A stretch of 60,654 bases of DNA, the filler included, from Dugesia japonica (taxonomy: Eukaryota): assembly GCA_001938525.1 (NCBI GenBank). It is 6 parts of 6 records of this genome, joined end to end, with 100 filler letters (N's around TTAATTAATTAA, not from the genome) between each part and the next. Parts side by side here need not be neighbours in the genome. Positions count along the whole stretch, not along the records: positions 1 to 8,609 come from MQRL01469445.1; 5 more parts are not named here. One strand, 5' to 3'. A program made the translations under genes and the position numbers. The notes beneath the pieces were generated by a model, which was given only the letters and a program-made list of their open reading frames with translations, was not told where the DNA came from and did no database searches. Below are positions 1 through 34,618 of the stretch, in pieces (position 1 is the stretch's first letter; every line of letters starts with the position of its first letter).

Positions 1-39
1 AAATAAGAAATACATTTTCAATAAGAAAACTATATTTTT

Positions 40-372
40 ATATAACAAGTATAACTAAATCTTTCAATTATAATGTTTTTTTAAACCATAATAAACAGTG
101 TTGTCCAAAAACGTTTTGTAAACGCATCTTGATATTGAATTTTGCTGTGACACTTACATTGACGGATAATAAAATGCTAATGGATCAAATACAAATACAT
201 TTGCAGGCTTATTGTAAACAGCTATTCACTGTTCTCCATCTATATTCGATCTACAATTAAGGCATTATCTACTGGAATATAATTTGGACGTTTATCTCAC
301 GCATAAAAACTTAACAATACTGATCCAAGCCACTTTGTTGCAATTCAATCAATCTGAATAGAATTAATATAA
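40..372 (-). pseudogene. Adenain-type cysteine maturation protease (Polinton PRO), disrupted
   Basis: The - strand reads INSIQID...DGEQ*IAVY (GEHW motif decayed)...VFVFDPL...KIQY...NVFGQHCLLWF (CGxxC catalytic region decayed). Boundaries are approximate. Confidence 0.8.
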
Positions 373-464
373 TAAAAATAATTAATATAATAACTTTTTA
401 CTTCATAAAATGTTTCGAGTATACATCATACTGTTTACACTTATACTGTTCCGTTGGCTTTGAT

Positions 465-1652
465 CTAAATTTCTTTTTCAAAAACTCTATAAATTATAAC
501 ATATGCCGATGTTGGTAAAGCTTTGGTGAACTTGATATCCAATCTCAAATTTCTTTGTTTAGGTAATTGACTCTGGTTTATATCAAAATTTGGAGCAAGA
601 ACAAATGTAAAGAAAGGATAATTGTCCTTAAAATCAGTAAGTGTTATTCTACAATTCATNTTCTTATCCAAATATCCCATATTTCTTACTATATATTGCA
701 TATAAGTATAATTACCGTTTGTAAAATCTTGAGTATATATTACTCGATAATCAGTGTTTTTGGTCAAGGAAACCGAAACAGCATCTAGATTTTAAAATGT
801 TGAACTCGATTTTTTATAGCTTCCGTTATATTGTTCTCCACTTTGAAGTGTAACCAAAATAAAGCTTGGTAATCAGCAAAGATTTCTTCCTTTTAAAACG
901 ATGAACTATCTTTGCGAATACAAATGAAATGACTTCCTTGGATCTTATCGGATAAATAGCATTTTGATTTTTTAGTCACAATTGATGAGCAGCTAGTACT
1001 GAGGGTTCAACTTGTACACGTCTGACCATTAATTTTGCATCTAGTAATACATAGGTAGGTTCATTGGCTGCAGATTCCAAAAAAATTTTAAAAATGATCT
1101 TTTCAACCGAAAATAAACCTTGATACCTTGAATATGGTATTTTCGTAGATCCATGAAATCGAGTAGTAATTAACTGTATAGAGATTATTGTTTTGATGTT
1201 TTAATAGACTTTTTTCTATTTTCTTCTGTCCCAAATCCCACTGCTGCAAGATAGATATTTTTGCTATTACCATTATAATTTGTTATAGTTTCAATTAGTG
1301 CTTTGTGAAAATAAAATTCATTTCCACTTTCTATTTTGAAATTATTAAATGAAAGAATTACATTCTTAAAAATCATATGCACCAAAATCATATACATATA
1401 GTTACAAAGAACTGTTTCATGTTTTTCAGTCAAATCTTTACCTGCCTTTTTAACTGCCTTCACTTTAATATACAGTAAAGTATCATTCAAATCCAGATAT
1501 TCTGTTTGAGATCCATTTATAAAAAACTTTACATCACTTTGTGATTCAGAAATTGAATTCATAGGAAAGACATCTTCCAAACTACCACTTTAAATTTTAG
1601 CTTGAGAAGATTTTCGATCAAAAATACATAATTCAGTTTTACCACAAATCAT
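465..1652 (-). pseudogene. Polinton major capsid protein (double jelly-roll, PY/hexon-like), disrupted and internally deleted
   Basis: ATG at 1652 gives MICGKTELCIFDRKSSQAKI*SGSLEDVFP...FFINGSQTEYLDLNDTLLYIKVK. The C-terminus is NLRLDIKFTKALPTSAYVIIY. Both ends are typical of Maverick MCP. Confidence 0.88.
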
Positions 1653-2011
1653 TTTTCAAAGATTGTTCCATGTCCTCTCATACGTTTGTTTATACGCGAT
1701 GAGTGAGATTTTTTACGTTTTCTATTAGTTTGTTGTGTTTTGATTTGATTTAACAGCATATTAGTTATTTTAGATAGTATTTCATTTGTTATACTTTGCG
1801 GTAATATGTTTGCTACTTTTGGGATCATACTGGTTAATCCACTAGGTAACGAAGACACAGAATTTCTACGTTCAAGTAATGCATTTGATTTCAATGCTGG
1901 TAATAGTTTTCCATCATTAGCTATAGGTTCAACAAGACTATAGGTTAACATTTGTTTATTTAACTTTATTATTTGTGGATTTCTATCACCTTGTATTACA
2001 CCATTCTTCAT
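1649..2011 (-). CDS. Small basic-tailed Polinton virion core/membrane-type protein (putative), open ORF of 120 aa
   Basis: Sits between penton and MCP with ATGA overlaps at both ends. It has an Arg/Lys tail ending MRGHGTIFEK. Confidence 0.55.
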   Translation of the reverse strand: MKNGVIQGDRNPQIIKLNKQMLTYSLVEPIANDGKLLPALKSNALLERRNSVSSLPSGLTSMIPKVANILPQSITNEILSKITNMLLNQIKTQQTNRKRKKSHSSRINKRMRGHGTIFEK

Positions 2012-2679
2012 ATCTGCAAGTGAAAATGTTCATTTTTCAAGCCTAATGTTCTTGCCAAAACTTTATCGAATGTAACAGTTTTGATATAATCTTTTAGAGA
2101 GAATTGAAATAGATTATTTGCTTTGAGAGAAATCGTTATTAAATAGTTCAGAATTGCTTTCTGTTAATTATTTATTTAGTTTCTCTAATTTTGCTATACA
2201 TAATTCATCTTTCAACTGTATAGTATGATAACTTACTTTAGAATAAGTTATTTTAATTTTTACATTTTCTATTGAAGAATTATCTTTAAATAATGTATAC
2301 ATAATATGAGTAAATCTAATCTTCTCTTTGGTAGTCCTAGGTTGGTATCCGAATTTATATGCGATTTTTTCATCTTCAAATATGATAACATATGGATATT
2401 TACTTGCAATAGTTATCATCCTCCTATCACGTATAAGAAGATTGTCATTTTGATCGATTTTGAAGAATTTTGCTTTATTATTAATTGTAACAATCATTTC
2501 ATTTGATATAGCTTTTGATGACATGATGAATCTTAGAATTTCTATATAACGGGAATGTTTGATATACAAATACAAAAGAATCTAACAATGCTATTCCGAC
2601 TGACCATCCATAGCATTATTATACGAGAAAGAGGACAACTATTACTCAGTAAAAGTCTATAGAAATGACTTGATTTCAT
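2008..2679 (-). pseudogene. Polinton minor capsid protein (penton, PX-like), disrupted
   Basis: ATG at 2679 gives MKSSHFYRLLLSNSC (compare FYxxLPSNSS), then a frameshifted DGQ.E.IALLD (compare GxWEVxL). It lies right after the integrase and includes ORF 2168..2575. Confidence 0.55.
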
Positions 2680-3689
2680 CTAAATTTTCTTCTTGATTAA
2701 CTATAAGCGATGCCAATATCCAACTTGGTTTTTCGTATCCATGCCACTTCACATAGTATTGTTTATTTTTTACAGTTCCCTTTGATTTGATAATGTTTTC
2801 TATTCTATATATTTCTGGTGGTGGAATAACTTGTAATTCTTGTTCATAGAAATTGTTTTGCAGGATATTATTTTCATAGCCTTTAATAACGTAGATGACT
2901 GGATTTTGTTTCGTGTTGATTTTTGTTGTTTGAAACACTTCATCACTCCAATTAATATTGAAATTCTAGATAAATGATGAAATTGATATTTTCGAGATTC
3001 TCACATGATCACTAACTTTACACTTTGGTTTTATTTGCTTTTGAATGTTTACGTGATAACCATAGCTTTAATTGATTGTTTGTACTTACATCAACCGGTC
3101 TATCTCCATTTCATCCCTTATGACCAGAATGATTATAACTATGTATAATTTTCGGTAAAATATTTATCCAAATGCATTTATTTAATGCATCTCTTAATGT
3201 ACGATTAAATCTCTCTACGTGTGCAGCTTTTTACTACGAGAATGCACTATAATAGTTTATTTTTAGAGGATTAATAAGTTACTTAACTTTGGAAATATAA
3301 AATTCCCTACTCAAATCCGTTTGTAAATTATCTGGATGTCCATTTTTAAATATTAATTTGATTGCAGATTTTGATTTAACTGCAACAGTTCTTGCCAATC
3401 TACTAAATACATTGATACATGTCAAAATATACTTGTATCTTTTATTTATTTTTGAATATGTAATCATCTCCATTAGATCCATTTGCTATAAATCATCGAT
3501 ACCATATATTTTATATGATCTGTTTGGAAATCTTTTCAACATCGGTTTGTTCAGGCTGTACACTAGTTGACTCAATAACCATGTTCTTGTCTTTCTTTTC
3601 GATTTTTTAGCTGCTTTCATCAATTTTTCTACGCCTCGGAAATCTACTGAATCTTTTGAATCCATCTATATTGTCTTTAGTTTCCCCAT
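2657..3689 (-). pseudogene. Polinton retroviral-like DDE integrase with C-terminal chromodomain, disrupted
   Basis: MGKLKTI*...GVEKLMKAAK...DDL*QMDLMEM...YKYILTCINVFSR...LQTDLSREF; AHVERFNRTLR; FYEQELQ; chromodomain YRIENIIKSKG..KQYYVKWHGY. Confidence 0.93.
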
Positions 3690-4098
3690 TACTACAATTC
3701 GATGCAGATTGTGGGTCAAAATTAGGTAATGATTGCAATACACTTATTGTATACTTAAATATTGCTATAAATTACCCATTGTTTATTTGAAATGAGTTAA
3801 TTCTAATGCTGCTATAAAGTCATCTTCTTGATTATTCATTATTACTCGTCTCATCAATTTTCAATTTTTTGTATTTATAAGCATTAATAATGTTCAAATG
3901 TACAATACCACGAACATTATTTACAATAATCTTAATTAAATCATCTATAACATATGGTGGAAATATTTGTACAATTTTCATACTAAAAATTTTCGATGAT
4001 TTAATCAAAGCTGTAAAAAACGAAATACTTGTTTCTAACTTCATTTTGTTATTTCGATAAAACATACATACCAAAGATTTGTTTATAATGATATCCAT
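3690..4098 (-). pseudogene. Polinton conserved small basic protein (PW-like), degraded
   Basis: DDLIKIIVNNVRGIVHL resembles the ExxxNxLxGNVxL motif, and the position between ATPase and integrase fits. Confidence 0.4.
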
Positions 4099-4329
4099 TT
4101 TCTATTCATTATTTTTAGTTTCTTTCCGGCACTATTTGCAAATTTTTAACCTTATTCAGTGGCTTTTTTTAATTACATGTTTTCTTATGGGATTGCTTCT
4201 TATTAGATTTTTCTTTTAAGATTTTTTCGTCCTTTTCTTTACAGCCAGGTTTTTTCGTTGTTTAACAACATCAGTAACTGAATCAACTACAATTTTCTTA
4301 AATTGAACCATTTTATGTAATATTAATAA

Positions 4330-4960
4330 AATTATCTATTTTGCTTATACACTGTTATACCGTTTGGACTAAATATATCAGTTGGCACTCTATAGTCATC
4401 TGGACATTGTTGAGTAAAGTCGAGTAATAAATATCCACGTGGATTTTCTGTTGCATCTTGAAATGATTCAATCAAAAATTGTATGTTATTTGAATATACT
4501 TGTCTTGCTAGGAAATCATCAAGTCGGATCTCTAAGATTTTTGAATAGAACCAAATATAATAAGTTTAAATAGCGGATTCTCTGACTACTACCTTAATGA
4601 AATAGACTTTGAGTAATAAATATCACAGTCACATTACGATGTCTCGATATGTTCGTGAATAAATTATTGAAATCGCTTTCTTCAATTTGCTTCCTGATAC
4701 AGATCGTCAACAACAATAACATCNCCTGGTCTCAATATTTTGCTCCAATTTTTATCAAATCCATTTATAATTTTCATTTTAATATTACAAAATTCAGATG
4801 TAGTCATTTCATTTTCTTCATCTCCACCCCTATTTTAGTATATGTTTTTAAATTTCGACTTGAATAAATTTGATTTCAACAATGTTCATACAAACCAAGT
4901 TTTTTCACTACCACTAGGTCAAACAATTTGATAAACTGCATCATTTCTTAATTTAACCAT
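4330..4960 (-). pseudogene. A32/FtsK-like genome packaging ATPase, disrupted
   Basis: ATG at 4960; Walker A decayed to YQIV*PSGSEKT; VIVVDDL Walker B; SRHRNVTVIFITQSLF; FQDATENPRGYLLLDF...YRVPTDIF. Confidence 0.92.
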
Positions 4961-5055
4961 CTTTTCTTTTTCTTAAATTTATTAATAATTCAGTACATTG
5001 TTTAGATTTGTTTTAACTGATCAATTAAATTAACCCCATTAATTAATAAAACCCC

Positions 5056-5277
5056 ATTGTTCCAAATAATTCATTAATTATAATAACCAATATTTATTAC
5101 AGAGATAAAGTGACGCAAGAAGTAACAAAGAAAATGAGCTTTCCAATAAGTAAACCATGTCAAATCAAAGTCCAAAGTGACAAGTTTACTATTCTATTCT
5201 TCAGATTAGGAAAATATAGAATAATGGGTTGTAAGAAACCATTGGAACCACTACCATTTACAATCACATTTAAATAA
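5056..5277 (+). pseudogene. TBP-fold-like fragment inside the Polinton
   Basis: Stop-free frame IITNIYYRDKV...KPCQIKVQSDKFTILFFRLGKYRIMGCKKP. The FxxGKxxxxGxK spacing is identical to the TBP repeat LIFSSGKMVCTGAK. Confidence 0.5.
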
Positions 5278-5341
5278 GTTAATGATAGAAAATTAAAAAA
5301 ACAATGGTGTAAGAATTAGATCAACTTGGAGTCCAAATTAT

Positions 5342-6830
5342 TTGAATGAAATTAAGGATAATATTGATTATGAGAAGAATACACCTCTTTGTAAAAGGAT
5401 TCAAACTGGTACTACGTTGTATACATTGCCTACAGAAAAAGGGTTAATATTTAAGGATTACTCTAAAACTGTGACTCCGCAATTTTTTATTTATGCAGAT
5501 TTCGAATCTGTATTTGAAAAAGATGAAAAGTATTTTTAAAAGCATTTACCTATTTCTGCTGGATTATTTTTGATGAACAATTTTACTAATAAACCTAAAT
5601 ATCATCAAAATAGTGATATTTGATATTTTCCATTTTTGAGTATGAATTTTGAAATTTGTTTGAAAATAACAAATTTATGTTTATAGTTTGGTTTTGTGAA
5701 TAAATCTTTTAATGGAAATGAGTTTTGACATTAATGATACGATAAATACTTCAAACTCATCTAACAATATTCATGATTATTTGAAAAATCTCCCTGTAGC
5801 TGCTAAACATCAGACAGTACCAGGTTCAAAAGTGAAGAAATTATTATGAACGCATTATTCAAAAAAGAATTATGTAATATATTGGAAGTTACTTCAATTT
5901 TATTTAAAAATAGGTGTTGAAGTGACTAAAATCCACGGAGCTGTAAATTTTAACCAAGATTTTATCTTTAGGGCTTATGGAGATTGCATTACTGACTTAA
6001 GATCTGAAAGTAAAAACAAAATGAATAAAAATTATTATAAGCTACTTAATAATAGTCATTACGGAAAAAATGTTGAAAATTTTAAGAAGCGAATAAGTCT
6101 CCATGTTTGTAGCTCCGCTAAAAACTAATGACCTATTGTTCAAAACCAACATTTAGGAAATCATTTAAAATAGATAAAGATATGATAGCAGTATAACTAC
6201 ATAAGGAAAAATATGTTTAGATCGTCCTAGTTATATCAGACAAGCTGTGTAAGACTTTAGTAAATTAAGGATGTATCAGTTTCAATATATAAAATTAGAA
6301 AGTATAGGAAACAAGAAAATTTATAATAAATATTGCAGCAGGTGATACCTTATAGTTTCTTTCTTGAGATCAAGGATATTAGATTATAAAGGATAATATA
6401 AAACAAATGAAAAACGTTAACTTAATTGATACATCTAATTTTTGTACAAACAACACACTTCATAGCATGTCTTTGAATTTCATTTTTGGTAAATTTAAAG
6501 ATGAGTCCAAAAATATAAGATATAAGGAATGGAGTTTTCTGAGACCAAAATGTTACCGTCTCCTTAGAGAAAAACCTTCTATGAAAACTAAAGGTTTAAC
6601 ATTACAAAGTACCGGCATAAACCATCAGTCGTTATGATAATAATATCAAATTGTTATGATAATAATCAAAAGGTCTTTGTTAACAAATTTAGAATTTGTA
6701 GTAAAAACCATCAACTATATAGCATTAATAGTATTAAAATAGCTTTGACTAACACAGACGATAAGCGTGTATGGGTAGATTAAAATATAAGTATACCATA
6801 TAGACATTATAGTATTTCAAACCGCTATGA
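5342..6830 (+). pseudogene. Protein-primed family B DNA polymerase (pPolB), fragmented with large deletions
   Basis: ExoI FIYADFES; YYKLLNNSHYGK; SKLRMY; GDT..SF (decayed DTDS); GKFKDE; FLRPKCY; KTKG; ALTNTDDKRVW. Confidence 0.93.
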
Positions 6831-7053
6831 TAAGAAACCAACTAATGCAATGTAAAGGTAACAATATTTTTTAATTGTTAATTGAAATGAATTAATTAAT
6901 TAATTATTATTTAGAAATTCAACTTAAAAGTTTCAGAGAACTCAATCAAATGAATAAAAAACAAGATTTAGTATGAATAAATATTAGTTATAACGTTGTT
7001 TGGTTATTTACTGTTTTTTATTAGTCAATATTAATATTCTCCAGTAAGAATTG

Positions 7054-8339
7054 TGTTGGGGTGAAACACCCGGTTTGAAAAGAAGAACAAGATCAGGGGC
7101 CCAAAGAAGAAAATAGTATCAAAAGGCGGTCGAAAGGTTAATCAATTAGGAATGAGGGCAATAATTATTAATACGAAAACGAATAAAGAATGAAATGTTG
7201 AAGGAAGATATCAAATTTGTAAAATAGTGGCCGAAACCAAGTTAATTAAGAAAATTATTGTCATTAAAAATAAAATAAGAAAATGATCAGGAAAATAATA
7301 ATTAATTAATAAAGGAAAATTAATTAATTTTATCGAAAAATAAATTAGAATTAGACAAAAATCAGTTTTGGTCGATTAACTCCACTCAGGAGAATCACAG
7401 GGAACGGTAGCAAGAAAATCTGAAAAGAAAATGACAAGGAGCAAAAGAATTTTGCAATAAGAAAGATTTGAAGAATGGGCCAATAAGGAGTCAGAAAAAC
7501 AAAACAAAACAAAAGACCAGAAAATCACATGGTGATCTAAAAATAGGCACCAATGATAACTCTAAAAATTCTGGAAAAAATCAGAAAATTGGCACCATCA
7601 CTAATGAGAAGCATGAATTTCAAACTAAAAATAGAAGCTCAAAAACAATGATGCCGGGTTGCATTTGGAAAGCTATATAAGCCCTCTGAAATTGAGAAGA
7701 AAATCAATCACTTTTTCAAAAGATTCAAGCATTGGAAAACTATTGTCCAATTTTCTAACGAATTATTAGAAAAGCTTGTCTATTATTTTAGCATAACTTG
7801 GCTAAAAAATTATTCACTTAATGTTCGCAAGGAAAATTTGCTGCGCTATTTAGAAAATAATTAAGTAAAGTTACCGTTAAATCTCACCAAAATTAATTTC
7901 ATTTAAAAAGAAATCAGGAAAAGAAGTACCTCGGCTATATCTAGGAGAATCTGTGATTATTGGAAACNTACACCAACTCAACCCTGTTGCAGGAATACCA
8001 ATTGTGAATTAGAAGCCAAAAATTTTATTGCAATTCTATGTATCAATAATTTTTCGTTGTCATATAATAGTAAATAAACTACATTCCGTAATTTTAATTA
8101 ATTTTGAATCTAAAGTAAAGTTTTCTATTACAATTATGTAATCATATTCCGTAATTACCATATAATAATAAATAATCATTAAAAAAAGTTATGTTGGATT
8201 AATATATTAAAAACGAGTAAATAAACAAACGACTTTCGTAACTTTTACTTAATCGATAAGCTTACTATTTTCCAGTCAGAGTTGATAGAAATCTAATGAG
8301 CATGTGATACTGAATCGGTCTATAACATTAATTCCAACA
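7054..8339 (+). mobile_element. Probable solo LTR (about 1.29 kb)
   Basis: Termini TGTTGG...CCAACA form a 6-bp inverted repeat. TTG flanks both sides. There is an internal TATATAA at about 7674, downstream AATAAA motifs, and no coding capacity. Confidence 0.65.
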
Positions 8340-8609
8340 TTGAAAAATAAACATCCATAAATAAATTTGAAGGGTTAAAAAAAGGAATAAATCAAGGACA
8401 ATAATCTTCACAACTCCTACTCTGTGTTATCATGACTGTTTCTGATCATCAAATGTACTGCAGCCTAATTGCTATATACATAAAATCCGAAATTTCAGAG
8501 AAAATAGATCTGCTATATTTATTGCATGTTTGAAGCAGAAAAGTCTCATAGTTACAAGACACAATTGAATAGCGCTTTTAATTTCTTCTGGATTAAATTC
8601 ACCAATATT

Positions 8610-8709
8610 NNNNNNNNNNNNNNNNNNNNNNNNNNNNNNNNNNNNNNNNNNNNTTAATTAATTAANNNNNNNNNNNNNNNNNNNNNNNNNNNNNNNNNNN
8701 NNNNNNNNN
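8610..8709. other. Artificial contig linker (44 N + TTAATTAATTAA + 44 N); also at 17189-17288, 25868-25967, 34689-34788 and 51951-52050
   Basis: An identical six-frame-stop 12-mer is centred in 100-bp N blocks five times. Confidence 0.97.
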
Positions 8710-8769
8710 CATACATACTTGTATGTATGTATATACACATATACATACATTTTTCATAAAATTAAAAAA

Positions 8770-9570
8770 AACATCATAACAAGTACATTTCCAACGCGTT
8801 TCTGGATATGAAGATATTTACGCAATAAAGAGAAAGAGTTATTCAAACGTGTTAAAAGGATACCAAAGTAGTCATGAGAGACGAGCTCAAAACCAGCCGT
8901 CAATAAGTTTTATGAAAAATCTATAACAGAAATTTCAACGTATCAAATAAAATACAACGAGAGGATGTCATAATCAGCGATTACAGAGAAAAGAACCCAG
9001 GGTTTAAATAGACAACTAACAGTTTTAATGAACAGCTTGCATGATATCATTTTGATAGATGTAGAGGATTATCACAAGAAGAAAAATTACGAGAAGAAAA
9101 ATGTTATTGTTGCGTAGAACATCGANATGTGCGTTATCAATGTTTATTAAGACATATGTTTAGTATGCCGGAAAGCTGGACACAATTTCTGGCAATGTTA
9201 TTTTGTGCAAGGTCTATCTAGTAGCGGAAATACTAAAATTCTATGCATCCAAAAGGAACAAGATGTACAAACTGATAAAGATCAAAGTTTTGAAATGTAT
9301 GATATTTTCAAAGAACAATCATAACAACTCCGCTTCATACATTTTGTCAGAAGTGTTAGTTTAGGAAGGGATAATTCGAATCAAAATAATGAAGACAGAA
9401 GAGAGATGAATGAAAAATGAAGACGGAAGAGAATGAAGCAGAGTGGATGTAAATGAAGTGCATTTGTTAATGTTATGGGATTCAGGAGCATTGATTACAG
9501 TTATGATTGAAGAGTGCTGGTTGAAGGTAGGAAATCACTCTTGTTATGTTGCAACGTCATATTAAATTGA
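8770..9570 (+). mobile_element. Ty3/Gypsy gag (zinc knuckle) and N-half of the aspartic protease, decayed
   Basis: CYCCVEHRxVRYQC knuckle-like motif at about 9102; MLWDSGALITV protease active site at about 9470. Confidence 0.75.
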
Positions 9571-12757: not shown

Positions 12758-14112
12758 CTAACAGTAGAGAGAGGCTGTTGGGAAGTGTAGAACTGAGCGT
12801 TAAATAGAAGAATATAATGAGAATTACTTAAATCATAACAGTTAAAAAGAAACGACCACAATTTATTGGTGGGATAAATGCAACGAAATGTTTCAGAATA
12901 AAACTGACAGAAGTTAATAACATTGAAACTAGAAGTTTGGGAAGAAGCCACTCAAACGATGATAGAAAGAATTATGCATTATAGGTCTTTAAAGAAACAA
13001 TTAACAAAGATCTAAATAATCTAATTTTGAAATTCGCTGAAATATTAATGGCGTCTAAAATTTGATATAGGACACAAAACAAGTTGAACATGAAATAAAA
13101 GTATTGAGAGATCCCATTTTTAAAGGTATCATCATATATCTAGATGGTATACGATGATATACAGTATATTATCCATAGTGAGTGGAAGGACGGTCAAAGA
13201 TCATCATGAAATTTTGAAAGAAATTTTTAACAGAATCAGAGAATCAGGATTGAGGATAAATTCAGAAAAATGTAAATTTTACCAAAAACAACTGGTCTTT
13301 TTGGGGCATACAATAAGTCCGAAAGGAATTAAAACAAACGAAAGTACGATTTGGGAAATAAAAAATGCCGAAGAATCAAAATGCTCATCTAAACTCTGGT
13401 CTTTTCTTGGCTTAACGAATTATTACAGGTGTTTTAACAGGGATTATTCTAGAATTGCAAAACCTTTCTATGAAGCTATTTCAGGATATGAAAAAACCTT
13501 GATGTGAACAGAAACATGCAGAACAAGTTTTGAAAACTTAAAAGACAAGTTATGTAATGCATCAATTCTAGATTACCCTAGAGAAAATAGAATGTTTATC
13601 CTAGATACTGATGCGAGTTTTGTAGCTATCGGTGCTATGCTGAGCTAAAGAATGGAAGATGGTGAAGAGATATGATTACAACTTTACTTAAAGGAAATTG
13701 TAGCGAGAAAAACTGAGATGCATTACTTCCGAGAATTGAGTTCAGTATAAACTCTTCTGTTCAAGAGTCGACAAAACTTTCACCATTTGAGATTATATTT
13801 AGAAAGCGTATAAATTTGCATGCAAAAACGGAAACCATTTCTGAAAACAAAACAGTTAATCTAGAGACAGTTTGACAAAATTTAAATAAAGCGGCTAATA
13901 AAATGGCGAATTTTGAAAATGANNNNNNNNNNNNNNNNNNNNNNNNNNNNGAGAAGTGGGTGTTAGTTTGTGTAGAACCACACCAAAGAAAGAAAAGTGA
14001 TTTCCAATATAAAGGACCATATCAAATAATGAAGTTCATATCAGTTCGGCAAGTAGAAATCAAATTTTCTCATGGCTCAAATTACAGAAGAAAGAAATGG
14101 AAAGCATTTTGA
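12758..14112 (+). mobile_element. Ty3/Gypsy pol relic: protease C-half, RT, RNase H and integrase C-terminus, followed by a PPT
   Basis: LLGSVELSV...PQFIGGIN; IIYLDG; KCKF...VFLGHTIS; SFLGLTNYYR; FILDTDAS; YKGPYQI; purine tract GAGGAAGAGGGTGAAG at 14111-14126. Confidence 0.9.
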
Positions 14113-16510: not shown

Positions 16511-16999
16511 TCAATTTTCTTTCAATTTCGATCGAATTCTCTGCATTAATTTCGGTAGACTACTATCGAGATGAGAATCAACGCAACTTCTGGCACACCG
16601 ACTAACTTCTTTCTCAGCAATTTGTATTTCACTTTCAGTTGGAGATGAAGACATTTTATCTTTCTGTTTATCAGCACAATCCAGCATGCATCGTTGCAAT
16701 CGATTCTAGTAAACAAACAAATATTTCATTGATTTATTTAACTTAAAACGAAATATGATTGCCTGGAATGTATTTATCTCATTTTCAATAAAAGATTGAG
16801 CTTTTGCAACAGGTTGACTGCATTTTGACAAACAATTTTGGACGTCTTCACTGGTCATATCGAAATTCTCGCAACACTTTATCGAACACCGATATTGATC
16901 AGCTTGCATCTTTCTGAGAAAGTCTTTATCAATAGATTCGATTGAGTTTTGAAATGCTTTTTGATAAATTTGTTGCAAGTCATTTAGTTCCCGATTCAT
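16511..16999 (-). CDS. FAM136A: FAM136A homologue, 143 aa; exons 16999-16763 and 16705-16511; 57-bp GC-AG intron
   Basis: LRKMQ...CSIKCC...VQNCLSKCSQP...FQ|NRLQRCMLDCADK...RCARSCVDSH with twin CX3C motifs. The spliced frame is open end to end. Confidence 0.92.
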
Positions 17000-17288
17000 C
17001 TAAACAAAAAATATATCTGATAAAAATCAAAGTTTATTTACATAAATAAACTGAAAATTTAATTTTTCAATTTTGATAACCGAAGCTCGATTAAATCTTT
17101 AACATTACATTTTAAATAATACAAATAAATAATATTTATAAAAAAGAATGATTGATAATTATATCAGATAATAGATAAATAATTTTTTNNNNNNNNNNNN
17201 NNNNNNNNNNNNNNNNNNNNNNNNNNNNNNNNTTAATTAATTAANNNNNNNNNNNNNNNNNNNNNNNNNNNNNNNNNNNNNNNNNNNN

Positions 17289-18939
17289 GTTTGATTAGTT
17301 TGATTTCCTCTATTTCTTCTTGCCATTTACATCTCTCTATCTTTATCATCTGATTTATCTGTATTGTTTTCATCTTCTCCATCTTTGGATCTTTAAGTTG
17401 CATTTGACATTGAGTGCACGTTCCGCATTTTATTCTTGAGAGCATATATGAGTTTTTGTGTTTTTTGCCTTGTCTATATATTAGTTCCATGTCTAAGCTG
17501 CTAAGGTAATTCATCCATGTCTAGAATTGAGGTGTTATCGGTTTGTTCGTCTTTTTAATGAATACGATGGTTTTGTGATCTGTTCTCGTTATGAATTTAT
17601 TTCCATATAAATAATGTTTAAAGTGGTTGCAGAAGTAGAAATTTGCTAGTAATTCCTTCCGTGTGATACAATAACCCTTCTCATGTGATGATATTGCATG
17701 TGAGCCGTAAGCAATTACTCTTTCTCTTCTATCATCATCATTTTGTGATAGAACCGCTCCTTTGTGTCAAAGCTGGCGTCAGTATCTAAATAAATGTCAT
17801 CTTTATATCAGGAAATAATAAAGTAAGTGCTTCTATCAGGGCTTGTTTCATTTCTGCGAAAGCTTTCTCACATCTATTTGACCATATTAGTTTCATGCTG
17901 TTACTTCCACATAATTCTTCTAGGGCTCTTGATTTCTTTGAATAATTCTTGATGAATCTTAAATAATTTCATATTCCGAGAAAGCTTCTCAGGTTCTTTA
18001 CGCATTTGGGTTTCTCGAAATTTTTGATAGCTTCGATTTTCATTGGATCTGTTTGAATTCCTTCTTCATCTATTATGTGGCCAAGAAATTTCACTTCTTT
18101 GCGTAATAGTTGACATTTTTCCGGATTCACTCTCAACTCGGCCGTTTGGATCCGCTCTAATACCTGACCCTGAATNNNNNNNNNNNNNNNNNNNNNNNNN
18201 NNNNNNNNNNNNNNNNNNNNNNNNNNNNNNNNNNNNNNNNNNNNNNNNNNNNNNNNNNNNNNNNNNNNNNNNNNNCTGGGGCTGCTGCTATGCCGAATGG
18301 CATTCTTGTGAAGCAATATTGACCATTTCTTGTCGAAAAGGCTGTTTTCACTTCTGACTCTTTTTCTAACGGTACCTGGTAATACGCCTTTCCCAAGTCT
18401 ATCGTACTGAAATATTTGGCTTCATACAAATTGTCTAAAATTTCTTCTACGTTTGGCATCGGAAAGGCCTGTCGTTCCGTAACTGTATTTAGTTTTCTGA
18501 AGTCCAAGCAAAGTCTCACATCCTTTCTTTCTTTTCCCCAGACGCATATCAGCAGTGTGTTCCACTGCAAATTACATTTTCTTATAATATTAGCGTCCAC
18601 TAAATTCTTTATGGCTGTATCTATTTTTTTTCTAGACTCATGGGTTGTCCACAATGCTTTGTATTTATGGTTTACCCTTTGTCACTATCTTGTGTTCCAC
18701 CAACGTTTTTGGTGGCATTCGTATGCTTCTCTAAAGTCTCGATCAATTAAGCCAACCACCAAGAGGTTTTTAACCTTTTTCTTTACACCAATACATTCAA
18801 AGTATTTGGTGCAACCATTGATAAACTGTTCAATATTGTCCCCATGCAGGTAAATTCCTGGGTGTAGTGCTTCTCGAATGAGGTCCATTGAAGCGTTTGT
18901 CGCCATGTTAGTTACTGATAAACTTTCTGAAAAGTCCAT
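17289..18939 (-). mobile_element. Ty3/Gypsy relic: gag N-terminus fused by deletion to RT-RNase H
   Basis: RLCLDFRKLN; YFSTIDLGKAYYQV; KTAF; RMPFGI; VKFLGHII; LRSFLG; YCITRKELLA; YRQGKKH. Confidence 0.93.
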
Positions 18940-21900
18940 AAAATTTCAAATTTTCAAATCTTCAAAAAAAACTATTTTTTTAAAAGCTGATTATTTAAAC
19001 AAAACTTTTTAAATATTTTAAAAAATTCTTGAAATCTTTTATAACATTTTCTTCAAAAATAAAATTTCTATTTCAAATTTTTAATCCTTAAATATTTTTA
19101 AAAGTTCTTGAAATCTTTTGAATCATTTTCTTTAAACTTTAAAGTGCGATTTTCAATTTTTAATCCTTATAGAGGCAATTAATTATCAATATCAAATATG
19201 AAAAATATAGATTGCCAAACTTTGGACTTCAGGCAATCCGAAATTTCATACTTAATGACCTAATAAGCAAACTCTTGTTGGTTCGTTAAGCAATTTCTGC
19301 TTATCAGTCCAAGTGATCAATCAACAATTCTAGACTTTCTCTACTGCAGACGTTTGAACAAAAATAGAGATTTTCTCCATTTATTTTGTTAAATTATAAT
19401 GAGGTTACTTCAATGTGTGCATTCAGATTGAAAGTGTTTTATGCAGTTTTCAATATTATAGACATGAAGAATTCAAAGATATTCTTGTTGAAATCAATTC
19501 AATAATATGTTTACCAGAAACAATTTTTATGTTCTCCAGAAAATATTTGATAATATCCTCGCCATAAATAATTCAACGGTAAGTTTGCTGAATAAATCAA
19601 CGTATACATGCTAACTCTTATTAGATAATAAAATTATTTTCATTTATCTTTTAGTTTTACTTAATGTTTAAGTTTCTTTAATAATTATCATCAGATGTTT
19701 ACAATTTTAAAATTCATAATTATATCATCAATTGTATTCCAGATTAAATTAATAAACTTTATCTCTATATGCAATGTCAATTTTGTATTCATTCAGTATA
19801 ATCGTTGTTTTCTTGCTTATTTTTTAATAAAATCTCAATAAATAATTTGTTTGTGGTTTCATGAATTTGTTTAAATACAGCTCTAATTAATTGTCCACAA
19901 ACAAACTTAAATTAAATCAGGATTCATAAGCATTACAATATTAAAATTAAGAGACGTCGGTTTAAGAATCAAAAATATTAAAAGATTGAAGTTTATGCGA
20001 GCTATCAAACTAAATTTTCATCCTTCACAAATAATTTATACATGTTAGTTGAGAGCAATTAATAATATACTTTCGAATACTACGAATTAGAAATTTGTGG
20101 AAATTAGAGAGATATGCCTGTAGGCTAAATTAATCTCATTATACTTACATAATAGATCCCGATATCATTGAACACATGTATACTCGGGAAACGTTTATAG
20201 TACCTATAAGCCCTGCTGAATTACTAACAGCCGAGAACAATCCTAGGACAACAAACTCTTTCTTTTAAAACAATACTGTAATTAGAAGCAAATTTTCAAA
20301 TAAAGTAAAATTTAATTTAAAATTAATTAAGCACTTAATAAATGTTTATTTTAAATATATGACTTCCATATTTAAATTCTTCGGAAAATATTTGACATAA
20401 TAATATGGAACTGAAACAACTAAATTAACATGCTTTATCATATACAAATACAATCAAGTGTATAATTTATTTAAACTAGCAATGCAATATGATTATGTAA
20501 TCATCTCAATACATAAATCGCGATTATATAAAAAAAACCAATGTCATATGAATAATGTCTAGATAATATATCAAAATATTATCCTCTAAATATCTTAAAC
20601 AATTACTAGAAATTATTTATTTATTAACATTACTTTACTAAAATTATTAACAAATACACCCATCATTTATCCAATCATTATTTCGTTTTCAATTTAAGAA
20701 AATATTAAACAAAGCAAATATTTAAAAAATTGCTCAACTGAATAATTATTTCAATTTAATAAAATAAATAATTATTATAAAGCATCGTATTTTTTCTTTA
20801 AATACAAATTTCTCAAAGCTTATAAGATACTAACGACAGAGAATAATTCAAAGCATGATCGTGCTATTATAAAAAGATTTTTTCTTACAATGTTTACTAT
20901 TAGTCGGTAAAAATCCAATTACTTTTAATATATTTCTAATTGGATTCATGGCTTAGTACAAAATACATTGAAATTATTTCTTAATTGGTTTATAAATTGA
21001 TTTAAATTTATAAATTGATTTATATATCAATATCTAAAGAATCATTTTATTTTTAAGTATTAATGGCCACTTTTTAATGACACTAGTTGGAAATTCTTAA
21101 AGAAATCACGATTGAATTAATTTTATAATATGATAGACTGATAAATAGGCATTTATATGCAACGCATGAACGACTAATTGTTAATCAAAATCAACCCAGC
21201 AGACAGAGAATCGGATACATATTATTCCATTCCGGATTCTCCTTATCAACCTACTGTAGATAATTGAAGGACTCTCTGCAAAGGAAGCAGCTAGATTCAT
21301 AAGATAAAAGCTGTATTTTTTCCTATAATGTTGGTGAGACAAATGAAAATAGTCCGTGATAAAAAGCTACACTTGTTCAAAGAGACTTTGGTTCAAAGTA
21401 AAAATGTTGTTTGTTAAAAAAAATTAATGTCAATGTCAGTTTTACTGTTTATGTTCAATTGGTTTATTTTATTCTAGAGTTTGTCTATTGTTTATTTTGA
21501 TAGAAATGTTACAATTGAATTTGAAATTCAATTTTTGACAATAGTAAAATTTTAGACAGAATTTTTCTAATTTTATTTTATCCCAGAGGCATCATGAGGA
21601 ATATTTACTAAAATTTGCGATGATGAATTTCTAATTATCGTAGGGCAATAAAACTTTTGAAAAATTGAAGATTTAAGTGATTCTGATTGTTTGTTGATTT
21701 TCTTATTCAAGTATTTCTGAGTTATTTCATATTGTATTTCAATTATTAAAATATAGTTTGCGTGACATGTATTATAAAAAAGCAACAACTAATGTTTAAC
21801 TATTTTATTGATTTACAAAAATTATCTCACAGCGAGTCAGGTATTCCGGGAACATGTAATTTAAACACATCAGCCAACTCTTCTGGTGTCGAAAGTTGTC

Positions 21901-28722: not shown

Positions 28723-29979
28723 GGTTTACTATAACAAGGTTACCTTCAAAAGGGCAACATTATTAATGTTGTCAACTTGAAACAAACGATTCGACGCGTT
28801 TTTCATCATGTGCAGGCACCACTGCCAAATCCAACCAATTTACATGAACTTACATTGCCTGCTGAATATACATCAACGTTGAAAAGAGATAGTTTTTTGC
28901 TGCACGATAGTGGTCCTGGTTTCTTGGATTCTTGACTTTTTCTACTACTCGCAATCTGGAACTTTTGTCTAGATGTCCAAACTTGTATGCGGACGGAACT
29001 TTTAAAACAGCACCTCCTTTATTCCACCAAATCTACATTATTCATGTATTGAAACAGCGTATTATAATTCCTGTTGTTTTTGTGCTGATGAGTGATCGTA
29101 GCACAATAGTTATGTTCGTGTTCTAAGAGAAATCAAAAATCTTCGTGCTGATTTAAATTCAGAGACATTGATAACAGACTTTGAGCATGCTGCACTTCTT
29201 GCATTTAAAAGAGTTTTTCTAAATGTTGTGCAACATGGTTGCTTATTCCATTTAAGTCAATGTATGTGGCGTCGTTTACAGCAGATACCAGATCTCCAAG
29301 CCAGATACACATCAGATGTGCAATTTGTACTTGAAATACGTCAGTTGGTTGTACTCGCATTTGTTCCTGTTGATAACGTTGTAAATGCATTTGAAACACT
29401 CTTGGATTGTGAGTTTTACACTGATAACGAAGTTTCTATTCGTGAACTGATTAATTATTTCGAAGACACCTGGATTTTTTAGACCAAATTGACGAGGAAA
29501 CCACACTGATGCCGTTTACCCACTAACGTTATGGAACATGCACAATGCAGCGCAACAGAATCTGCCAAAAAAACCAACAATACTGTGGAAAGATGGCACA
29601 GAGGATTTGCACAAATTATCGAATCTTACCACCTTACTATATAGAAATTTATAGATGAATTTAAAAAGGAGCAAAGCCTCAATGAATTGAAGCTTGAACA
29701 ATATGGGGTTAGTCAAGAACCTCCTGCTGGAAGGAAAAAATACAAGGATTCAATAAATCGCATAAAAACAGTTGTTGCTGATTATAACAATCGACCAATT
29801 CTTGAATACTTGCGTGGGATTGTCGATAATTTGAATCTACACGCAAAAAGCCTATGTTAGCAGTATTTGGCGTATAATAATAAAATACATTCTATAAAAT
29901 ACTATACTTTATTTTATGTTTATTGGAATGAGCTCTTTTTAATGTCGCCCTTTTGAAGGCGCTATTATTATAGGATACC
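28723..29979 (+). mobile_element. Mutator-like (MULE) element, internally deleted, with a disrupted transposase
   Basis: TIRs of about 39 bp (shared CCTTCAAAAGGGC); perfect 9-bp TSD CAGAAAAAT; YADGTFK, ITDFEHA, GCLFHLSQ, YFEDTWI, TNNTVERWH. Confidence 0.96.
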
Positions 29980-31880: not shown

Positions 31881-33148
31881 ATTTGTTTTTCATTTAAAAT
31901 TTTCATTTATAAACTCAGAATGGTGGTCAGGTATTTTCATCACACTCTGACGTGGAAATGAATTTCTAATCCAATGAGTAACTCTTTTGGTCACAATGTT
32001 TAGCACTTCATTAGAGTAGACTTCATGCATCGGATTACTTGAATGATAAATATTGGAACTATTAGGTTCTGAGCATACATACTCATTCATTTAAAAGTCT
32101 GATGTAGCTAGAAANNNNNNNNNNNNNNNNNNNNNNNNNNNNNNNNNNNNNNNNNNNNNNNNNNNNNNNNNNNNNNNNNNNNNNNNNNNNNNNNNNNNNN
32201 NNNNNNNNNNNNNNNNNNNNNNNNNNNNNNNNNNNNNNNNNNNNNNNNNNGATCAATAGTTAAGTCCAACAATAATTCTTGTAATTGTAAAAAAAGCTGC
32301 AAATCTATATATAATAAAAAAACCAATTAAAAAAAATTATAAAATATACAAATTTAAATCTAAAATTTTTTTTAATTAAATTAGTCTATACATTAATGCT
32401 TGGATTATGAAATCTAAATATTAACGCTTCATACTACTTTTTCATCCCAATAATTTTTATATCTTTTAAATAAACTTTTAAAATTTGAAATGATAACATT
32501 CGATTTACATTTATTTGTATGCTCAACAATATTTCTATCTCTACCAATACGATAATGCTCATGAACCCTTGTACAGAGATGACAGTGTATGTAACATCAA
32601 ACACATTACGTTTAAATTGATAAACAAGTTTAGAACACAAATCAATCAGTTTATGGAATTTATTTGNAAAGCTATATAAATATAAATAATTTTAAAATGT
32701 TATCTAATTTAAAATTCGAAATATTTTTTCAATTAAAAGAATTTATTAAGTTTATCGGAATGAAAAAGCAAAATTTCTATTTCAACCAATATGTAATCAT
32801 GTGTAAATATTAAAAGAAAAAACAACAATCGGTAAATATTCATGTGATAACATCACGCTTAAATTATAAAGTCAAACATGAAAAATAATTTTTCTTTCTT
32901 ATCTGAAACTTAATTTTATATTTCACTGATTGAAGGTCAGTTGTCAAATTATTGATAATTTTTTTTTAATGAATCATTATTAATATTTCCAATTATTTTT
33001 ATTAAAAAAAAATTTAGCTCTTTGATTGGTGAAAATTTTAATCCAATAAAATGTTGGTATTTATTCTGATTTTTTTCCAAATCCAAATCTAAAAATCAAT
33101 GTCTGTTTTTATCATTCTATGAAACTTGATCAGTAAAACTGCCACATT

Positions 33149-33838
33149 ATGTGGCCTGACACCTATTATCAGATGTTGATTTTGTTTGGGAAATTTCTTT
33201 TAATATGTGGAGAATCAAAGATTTTATTCGATATTGACAGCTGCAAGTTTGTTGTTTCTCCTCAAATAGTACCTTCTCTTCAAGAAGGAAATAATACAAA
33301 ACTCACAATCAATTGCTCATGCTTTACCGGCAATCCACATTTATTCAGGAAAAACTTTACTCCACCGAAGGGTGTTATTTCCATATCGATATATACTTAT
33401 AATAAACATGTTATTCTGCCAAGTTTGAAAGGTTATCGTTCACATCATCCGGAAAATATGATTTCTTGCCAAATGACCCAATGGTGCTCAACGCTTAATT
33501 TTGATTATCATGATCAAACGTTTTTTTTTCTTCATGCTAACCAAGTTGGTGTAGCGAAAATTCTAATTGAAGTCGAACAAAGAAAAAATTCTCAAATTAT
33601 CGTTCAAACTGTTGAAACCGATTCTACTTTAAATATTTTAAAACGGCATTACGTTGTTAAAGTTATTAGAAATTATAAACTATTTCATTCTGTGTTCGAT
33701 TATAGTGCTACTTTCATTGCGTCTTTGACAGTTTTTTCTGTCGGATGCTGTACGGATATCAGTTATATAAAATCCAATATTGTCAATCCGAAAGCTGTGA
33801 TAATATCTTTAATTTGTCAGCATTTATTAATGCCTTTA
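33149..33838 (+). CDS. First coding exon (230 aa) of an SLC10-family sodium/bile-acid cotransporter-like gene; the rest is beyond the contig end
   Basis: Hydrophobic leader, long luminal region, then FSVGCCTD...PKAVIISLICQHLLMPL followed by a GTAAGT donor at 33839. Confidence 0.82.
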
Positions 33839-34618
33839 GTAAGTTTCTATTATCACGTTCTTTCCTTTTTACTAAAAAAATCTTATTTAAAATTTNNNNN
33901 NNNNNNNNNNNNNNNNNNNNNNNNNNNNNNNNNNNTATCGCGAAAATATTTGTCGTAGAGCTTAAAGTAAAAAAAGGAATATAATATTTCCTGGTTTTCT
34001 CTTTTACAAATCCACTAATACTGTATAATTGAAAATTTTCTTAAGTAATTTCTTTGATGAATTTCATTAAAACAAAAAAAAACCCAGATAGAATTGGTAT
34101 ATTTTTTATTGCAAGTTGTAATAATTTATTAATGAACAGCTGACAAATAAATATAATTTATTTAAATCNAAAAAAAATTTCTGAAAAATAAAATAACATT
34201 TAATCAAATAGTATTGCGTAATAAATTCAGCTCGATACACACACTTGATTACAATGAAAATATTTGTCGTAAAAGGTTTCATGTTCAAATAAAAAAATTA
34301 AAATTACATTAAAAAGATTATATTAAAATATAAAAAAATCTAAACATTTTTTAATTTCTCGAAATAATTAAATAATTCAAAACTAAAATGAATGAAAATA
34401 AGTATTTTGTTTATTAAGAATTATCAATAATTAATTATATTTGTCATTATTTCAGACAAAAATTCGATTTCACTCTTAGAAAATTAAGAGTTTCTAAATA
34501 TTTTAAAAACTTTATAATAAGAACATTATACTATAAGGATAAAATTTAGTTTTTTTAATTTACATTTAAAAAAATATATTAAGAGAACTTCAACTGAAAC
34601 GACAAAGAATTTACTCGG

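Follow-up and report, generated by a model that had tools for sequence, protein, structure and literature searches.

A TATA-binding protein gene remnant in a decayed Polinton of Dugesia japonica and its candidate link to late-gene transcription

A decayed Polinton in the 60,654-nucleotide stretch of Dugesia japonica DNA analysed here (the window) contains the first repeat of a TATA-binding protein (TBP) at positions 5080-5268, and this identification is secure. We hold with moderate confidence that the segment is the surviving first half of a Polinton minimal TBP gene that suffered a deletion, and that the protein of its intact relatives, mini-TBP, is likely a late-gene promoter factor. The evidence comes from the remnant itself, from the anatomy and genomic setting of intact mini-TBPs, and from a short DNA word that recurs upstream of Polinton structural genes.

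A first TBP repeat among Polinton remnants

An earlier note on this DNA had described a TBP-like gene fragment at 5056-5277 (+) inside a Polinton. Its quoted translation is reproduced here, and the frame closes with a stop. The earliest ATG of the enclosing 75-aa frame lies at 5134, and the initial 8 residues of the quoted frame precede the family start, with homology running from 5080 to about 5268. The window peptide alone scores below the Pfam cut-off for TBP (E = 0.026, 14.8 bits; cut-off 22.9), and its sole match in the PDB at E ≤ 10 is the archaeal TBP 1mp9 (E = 0.94). A search for longer relatives returned one of five candidates, the 150-aa protein P0002, which is 68% identical to the window peptide over 57 aa (E = 1e-28) and contains two Pfam TBP stretches (E = 1.9e-12, 47.2 bits against the cut-off of 22.9). 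Since the window half remains below this cut-off by itself, its membership in the TBP family is established through P0002. A profile of the family from which the window peptide had been left out gave this peptide 61.9 bits, as compared with at most 7.3 for shuffles (1000 run, 957 reported), and 201 of 218 family proteins match a single site in the window, the TBP remnant. Scanning 1.84 billion representatives with the window peptide (HMMER) yielded nine matches: three known members of the family; two low-complexity sequences, P0097 and P0101, which were excluded from the family set; and four new matches to the same N-terminal stretch.

The TBP-like identity proposed in the earlier note is thus borne out by the homology to P0002, by its Pfam match and by its predicted TBP fold. 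The spacing FxxGKxxxxGxK, which the note had read as that of a TBP repeat, maps to strands S4-S5 of the first repeat. As to its other cue, ITNI as an echo of the first TBP strand, MAFFT sets S1 in another register than ITNI/QNI, and we claim no residue equivalences for S1.

Positions 127-6846 are a decayed Polinton (Table 1). The minus strand carries protease, major capsid, chromo-integrase, a small conserved gene and ATPase, the plus strand the TBP piece and PolB; all five Polinton hallmarks (pPolB, rve integrase, A32-like ATPase, capsid and protease) are present as remnants. The L014 ATPase matches Pox_A32 and the L008 protease homologue matches Peptidase_C5, and the capsid label comes from gene order together with a weak DJR-like match of the L014 major capsid protein (E = 0.039). 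PolB contains a second gap, where about 260 nt (about 5575-5835) cover some 460-480 residues of related PolBs. The element continues past the left window end, beyond the protease remnant, and self-blastn of positions 1-9000 gave no long repeat. A short AACCCCATT repeat occurs twice at 5027-5061, in the divergent region between ATPase and TBP.

Table 1. Features of the decayed Polinton in the window.
Feature	Position	Strand	Basis or remark
Adenovirus-type cysteine protease remnant	127..246	-	E = 1e-4 to L009 protease
Major capsid protein remnant, 6 stops and frame changes	444..1652	-	tblastn E = 1e-89, L014 MCP
rve integrase remnant with C-terminal chromodomain, 7 stops and 1 frame change	2699..3701	-	Pfam and tblastn
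Small conserved gene, next after ATPase in related elements	3853..4047	-	Comparison with related elements
A32-like packaging ATPase remnant, 5 stops and 2 frame changes in aligned parts	4341..4960	-	tblastn E = 1e-57, L014 ATPase
Divergent intergenic ATPase-TBP region	4961..5079	.	Late word with one mismatch
Stop-to-stop frame with the TBP remnant	5050..5277	+	75 aa; encloses 5056-5277
Mini-TBP gene remnant, N-terminal repeat, family residues 1 to ~64	5080..5268	+	68% identity to P0002 and family profile
Junction: end of TBP homology, then mid-PolB (~residue 467 of the 1372-aa L029 PolB)	5269..5320	+	tblastn
Protein-primed PolB remnant, several frames	5321..6846	+	Pfam DNA_pol_B_2 E = 0.0038; tblastn with L019, L029 and L035 PolB

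Elsewhere, the window contains a host-type DUF842 gene in two pieces probably separated by a short intron (16511-16999, minus strand), which we take to be FAM136A-like; a sodium/bile-acid symporter-like gene (33137-33958, plus strand); a Quiver/Ly-6-family gene (54192-54605, plus strand), which suggests an animal host; and, at 13124-14112, 17233-18945, 29102-29482 and 55777-56286, decayed LTR-type reverse-transcriptase pieces, part of a MULE transposase and another rve integrase remnant.

Intact mini-TBPs: anatomy, setting and descent

The AF2 model of P0002 (pLDDT 95.2, pTM 0.84) was compared with the PDB by Foldseek, and every listed match at E ≤ 1e-3 is a TBP, the best being 1cdw (TMq 0.77). 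Pfam stretches, model and Foldseek matches agree on a two-repeat saddle in the intact family, and P0002 is a full-length, two-repeat copy of the kind that the earlier note had wished to see recovered. Profile and fold similarity to TBP, the absence of which would have spoken against that note, are both found in this family. For residue-level comparison, 71 of 94 family proteins were aligned with the window peptide, those excluded being mostly partial or extended. The L5.1 phenylalanine is present in both lobes of all 71 (F41 and F117), with the N-lobe residue also kept in the window. The C-lobe stirrup retains its Phe in 70 of 71 and its glutamates E97 in 70 (one Asp) and E99 in 71. These two C-lobe glutamates are TFIIB contacts, according to the available part of Ravarani 2020 (PMC7221094). 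A scan of 32 neighbouring ORFs, 13 of which belong to L019, gave no TFIIB match (3 more L019 ORFs lay outside the scan).

Two features of canonical eukaryotic TBPs are missing. First, the first N-lobe Phe column is Pro in 25 of 25 mini rows, which leaves three of the four phenylalanines that wedge into DNA. Second, the linker between S5 and S1' measures 18-23 aa in the 25 mini rows versus 33-36 in 34 of 35 full-size rows, and the AF2 model has no long helix at this place; linker length and model together show that the N-lobe has lost its regulatory helix H2 and, with it, the basic patch that binds regulators. In the available text of PMC7221094, H2 bears three of the basic residues that are used by TAF1, Mot1, TFIIA and Brf.

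The DNA-binding face has changed as well. Near-invariant R47, M49, S72, R105, C113 and N115 stand where eukaryote-type rows have V/T/N/I/V/L. The last three presumably correspond to I194, V203 and L205, the positions altered in yeast TBPm3. According to the available part of PMC1636458, the TBPm3 changes at I194, V203 and L205 alter TATA specificity. The same paper assigns the reading of the 3' half of the box to the N-lobe and notes that TBPm3 disfavours C in that half. The C of the Polinton word described below falls in this 3' half.

By sequence and predicted fold, mini-TBP is therefore a true TBP-family protein that lacks two canonical eukaryotic features. With cellular and archaeal TBPs (PF00352; 1cdw, 1mp9, 2z8u) it shares the saddle, the L5.1 phenylalanines, the C-lobe stirrup Phe and the TFIIB-contact glutamates. 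It differs from them in size (about 150 aa instead of a core of about 180 aa, with H2 lost and H1 shortened), in the Pro at the first N-lobe Phe column, in its polar DNA face and in being encoded by a mobile element; identity in structural alignments is 16-24%.

The family is sizeable. A search with P0002 placed 94 of 96 candidates in it, all with PF00352 and mostly 145-160 aa long, and a wider search gave 513 matches among 3666 candidates, the best 120 of these 513 all carrying PF00352. From a metagenome scan with 595 pattern matches, at least 121 were confirmed and 80 loci kept, with L001-L023 forming the close family. Genes at these loci were labelled by Pfam on seed ORFs, and minor capsid by position only. 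Among the matches listed, 11 of the 23 close-family loci carry an ATPase, capsid, minor capsid, protease, integrase or PolB gene, 8 more carry only genes that adjoin hallmarks elsewhere, and the remaining 4, each shorter than 1.9 kb, carry neither. The most informative locus, L019, combines PolB, TBP, ATPase, integrase and capsid genes, with TBP as a stand-alone ORF 5.5 kb from PolB. The segment is thus found in other Polintons, where it forms an ORF of its own. The earlier note had further proposed a constant linkage to ATPase and PolB. Linkage to Polinton elements stands, since, among the matches listed, 10 of the 12 close-family loci of at least 2.2 kb carry a hallmark gene; a fixed gene order does not. 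Near-identical members group in clusters as large as 18, and some lie on contigs of 15-32 kb, as expected of a multicopy element. IMG/VR gave 41 pattern matches, none of which was confirmed, and the family was not found in GTDB; a 20-residue GTDB match on a Lachnospiraceae contig was treated as chance. The near-complete L019 also contains KilA-N and phospholipase A2-like genes (L019:7145-9487).

Another conserved gene adjoins the TBP gene in nine loci (L001:2024-2389(-), L003:665-1012, L004:576-923, L007:641-1015, L011, L013, L015, L018 and L021), and some copies have an acidic tail. Its beta-rich model (pLDDT 84.7, built on 8 aligned rows) resembles giant-virus proteins and phage ssDNA-binding proteins, and the product is probably an SSB. 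On the strength of this model we reject a role of the gene as TFIIB- or TFIIA-like partner. No copy of the gene was found in the window.

A tree was built from 64 rows (50 of the 80 loci, 13 family proteins and the window peptide), excluding partial and near-duplicate loci; types (eukaryote, archaeal, virus) were assigned by eye, and the rows include no named animal TBP or TRF. The window peptide clusters with P0002 and P0003 (100/97). Mini-TBPs, the intermediate TBPs of L016, L019 and L022, and those of L029 and L031 form one clade (99/96) on a long branch off the eukaryote-type TBPs, and within this clade the S5-to-S1' linker shrinks from 35-36 through 28-32 to 18-23 residues. The Polinton TBPs of L035, L060 and L072 lie outside the mini clade, and a single origin of TBP in these elements is therefore not demonstrated; their placement suggests that Polintons may have captured TBP more than once. 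Full-size TBPs (169-188 aa) that lie outside the mini clade occur in Polintons L035, L045, L060 and L072 and, by likeness, in L038, L073 and L078.

An upstream word and its possible readers

The word HATAAAC occurs in 21 of 25 regions upstream of packaging, capsid, integrase, protease and related genes from nine loci (shuffle mean 1.8, maximum 6 in 500 shuffles), a count to be read with the facts that the word was first noticed by eye in these same regions and that related loci are not independent. An unbiased k-mer ranking of the upstream regions also put ATAAAC on top. The reverse strand has HATAAAC in 1 of 25 regions, and TBP genes are preceded by it in 1 of 13 cases. The extended form HATAAACA sits 25-99 nt before packaging, capsid, integrase and protease genes, mostly at 32-50 nt.

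In the window, TATAAACA lies 42 nt before the ATG of the major capsid gene (site 1694), a spacing equal to that in L014, and 43 nt before the ATG of the small conserved gene (site 4087). Two AATAAACA sites at 3787 and 2767 go with the integrase, and the minus strand of the ATPase-TBP intergenic region carries TCTAAACA, the late word with one mismatch, 46 nt before the ATPase ATG. The overall count of 7 in 5050 nt is not significant (shuffle mean 3.6, maximum 9). Near the C-terminus of the ATPase in L001, L007, L014, L016 and L019, the conserved residues YKQ owe their codons to the TATAAACA word that belongs to the next gene. Accordingly, this peptide motif may be a side effect of the DNA signal; the end of the window ATPase (~4341-4352) holds a copy of YKQ/TATAAACA with one mismatch.

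Canonical TATATAAG boxes followed by TCATT about 25 nt on were seen by eye before the TBP gene (L001, L003) and before other non-structural genes, in upstream regions of L001, L003, L035 and L045. Their placement suggests that they are putative early promoters read by the host.

A second word accompanies a different TBP. L031 encodes a full-size TBP of 181 aa from a different clade, with L/H/A at the three specificity positions. Upstream regions of this element contain ATGCAAA in 6 of 14 cases (shuffle mean 0.45, maximum 3 of 300) and HATAAAC in none of 14, and ATGCAA lies 10-46 nt before 7 of 14 genes. L029 and L030, from the L031 clade, have the second word in 1 of 3 and 0 of 5 regions, mostly of non-structural genes. 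We regard the pairing of ATGCAAA with the L031 TBP as a lead from one element, short of demonstrated co-evolution. The TBP-bearing L035, L060 and L072 have neither word, and a de novo search in them gave no clear word. The IMG/VR and GTDB scans supplied no TBP-less Polinton as a control: MCP queries had no match in IMG/VR, where the ATPase alignment found three distant loci.

These observations suggest the following model. The TBP gene would be transcribed early by host machinery from canonical TATATAAG boxes, as placed in L001 and L003. Once made, mini-TBP would attach to HATAAACA and, by way of its stirrup, bring in host TFIIB and RNA polymerase II; because H2 is missing, it would evade TAF1, Mot1, TFIIA and Brf. 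The outcome would be a nuclear early-to-late switch resembling that of herpesvirus TBP mimics. If the words are private to their TBPs, mini-TBP should favour TATAAACA over TATAAAAG, and the L031 TBP TATGCAAA over TATAAAAG. Such a switch would amount to the redirection of host polymerase to viral promoters which the earlier note had surmised, a conjecture to which the shared upstream word and the retained TFIIB-contact residues now lend support. In a broader and more tentative version, which we consider possible and hold with less confidence than the promoter-factor role itself, animal Polintons would have a late-transcription programme of their own. Captured TBPs would have shrunk stepwise (~185, 167, 150 aa) and been re-tuned to TATAAACA in one clade and TATGCAAA in another; they would constitute natural altered-specificity pairs of TBP and promoter, working with host TFIIB yet unresponsive to the TBP regulators of the host, and would include the smallest working TBPs.

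The words could also be read by host factors. ATAAACA is a forkhead-type site and ATGCAAA an octamer-type (POU/Oct) site, so both fit a host consensus, and mini-TBP, still a real TBP, could act as a decoy for TFIIB or as a booster at ordinary TATA boxes. A decoy would need the near-invariant TFIIB-contact glutamates just as much as a promoter factor, and three TBP-bearing elements do without a private word. We nevertheless find this explanation unlikely. The word is one-stranded (21 versus 1) and clustered 32-50 nt before the ATG; GTAAACA, a usual form of the forkhead site, is present in 0 of 25 regions on either strand; and the near-invariant polar changes on the DNA face suit a new sequence preference better than a decoy.

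It is considerably less probable that the word is a late promoter for the machinery of a helper virus, as in virophages, with TBP as an accessory. One Polinton-like virus does carry the promoter motif of its helper, according to the available text of 10.1101/2022.07.28.501842. In the sole case available here, however, the word varies with the element's own TBP, and no helper virus of these elements is known from this analysis.

Slightly more doubtful still is that HATAAAC has nothing to do with TBP and reflects the polyadenylation signal or the TAA stop of the upstream gene. TATAAA and CATAAA are weak poly(A) variants, and 7 of 22 plus-strand sites overlap or abut the upstream stop codon. Yet at nine sites the word is located 36-102 nt deep within the coding sequence of the upstream gene, so that cleavage would precede the stop, one site stands before a divergently oriented gene (L001), and AATAAA is found in just 4 of 25 regions. 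A promoter word read by mini-TBP remains the explanation that we prefer.

Fate of the window copy and place of the family

The window copy itself would no longer take part in such a switch. The earlier note had estimated that about one repeat survives, and indeed only residues 1 to ~64 are left, with no second repeat anywhere in the window; matches at E = 0.04 and at 8.9 bits, the best for this repeat, were rejected. The start codon is missing at the family start column. At two near-invariant columns the copy has residues found in none of the 71 relatives; departures at two or more of 16 conserved columns occur in 15 of 71 members, so that two are not unusual in number. Its end branch in the tree is 0.37, three to four times the 0.09-0.11 of its sisters. 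Downstream, the jump at the junction (Table 1) points to a deletion of TBP repeat 2 and the N-terminal part of PolB, with an assembly join as the alternative. Given the missing start codon, the absent second repeat, the jump into mid-PolB and the broken neighbouring genes, the copy appears to be a non-functional pseudogene.

Could the half-TBP be a working single-repeat protein, retained by host or element? Its 75 codons are open whereas the adjoining genes are riddled with stops. Chance alone can keep so short a frame open, however, and a start at ATG 5134 would remove strand S1; together with the lack of a start at the family position, the substitutions without precedent in 71 relatives and the long end branch, this makes a working half-protein very improbable. 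That the segment is merely the N-terminus of PolB or a chance motif match, suggested by its position next to PolB and its score under the Pfam cut-off, is already refuted by the close identity to P0002, a separate TBP, by the lack of similarity between the window peptide and three Polinton PolBs (best E = 0.98), and by the distance between the TBP gene and the end of PolB in L019.

Among virus-encoded relatives, giant-virus TBP-like proteins (PMC7221094; BFVD matches) are likewise two-lobed and devoid of the eukaryotic N-lobe regulatory signature. In contrast to mini-TBPs with their near-invariant stirrup, these viruses mostly have their own TFIIB, and the stirrup glutamates are about 40% conserved, according to the available part of that paper, the main text of which mentions no Polinton, Maverick, transposon or virophage. 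The TBP mimics of beta- and gammaherpesviruses, such as KSHV ORF24, combine a polar-rich DNA face with service at late promoters by host Pol II in the available text of PMC12529657, and their likeness to mini-TBP is a working model. ORF24 is described there as a multidomain protein that is part of a viral complex and binds Pol II, with no TFIIB binding predicted, whereas the Polinton protein is reduced to a minimal core, has retained the TFIIB stirrup and is not a member of the ORF24 family.

With the Polintons/Mavericks known as adintoviruses (Starrett 2021, PMC8502044), the elements studied here have PolB, rve-chromo integrase, A32-like ATPase, capsid and adenain-type protease in common. TBP appears in the available text of that work (preprint 10.1101/697771) as a figure-legend label only, and neither its available passages nor section 3.4 describes a TBP family, promoter word or mechanism. 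Beyond it we found no other link between Polintons and TBP among the matches listed from open-access papers and preprint texts; the available texts of PMC11131425, 10.64898/2026.06.19.733378 and PMC12220804 contain no mention of TBP or of a relevant TATA element. TBPs are mentioned in mirusvirus-like elements in the available part of PMC10675990. The Polinton mini-TBP family is thus apparently undescribed beyond one figure legend, and the present analysis adds its stepwise reduction in size and the second pairing of TBP and word.

The window copy adds one more occurrence, a dead one, and by itself nothing beyond that. The intact family bears on how Polintons time and drive their capsid genes without an RNA polymerase of their own, a question that touches on whether they make virions. 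A self-encoded TBP with a matching word is directly testable, as it involves one small protein and one 8-bp site. Mini-TBPs are natural variants of a nearly invariant protein, in which the regulatory helix has been dropped and the positions that govern TATA specificity in yeast have changed. As such, they could show how TBP reads sequence and supply orthogonal pairs of TBP and promoter.
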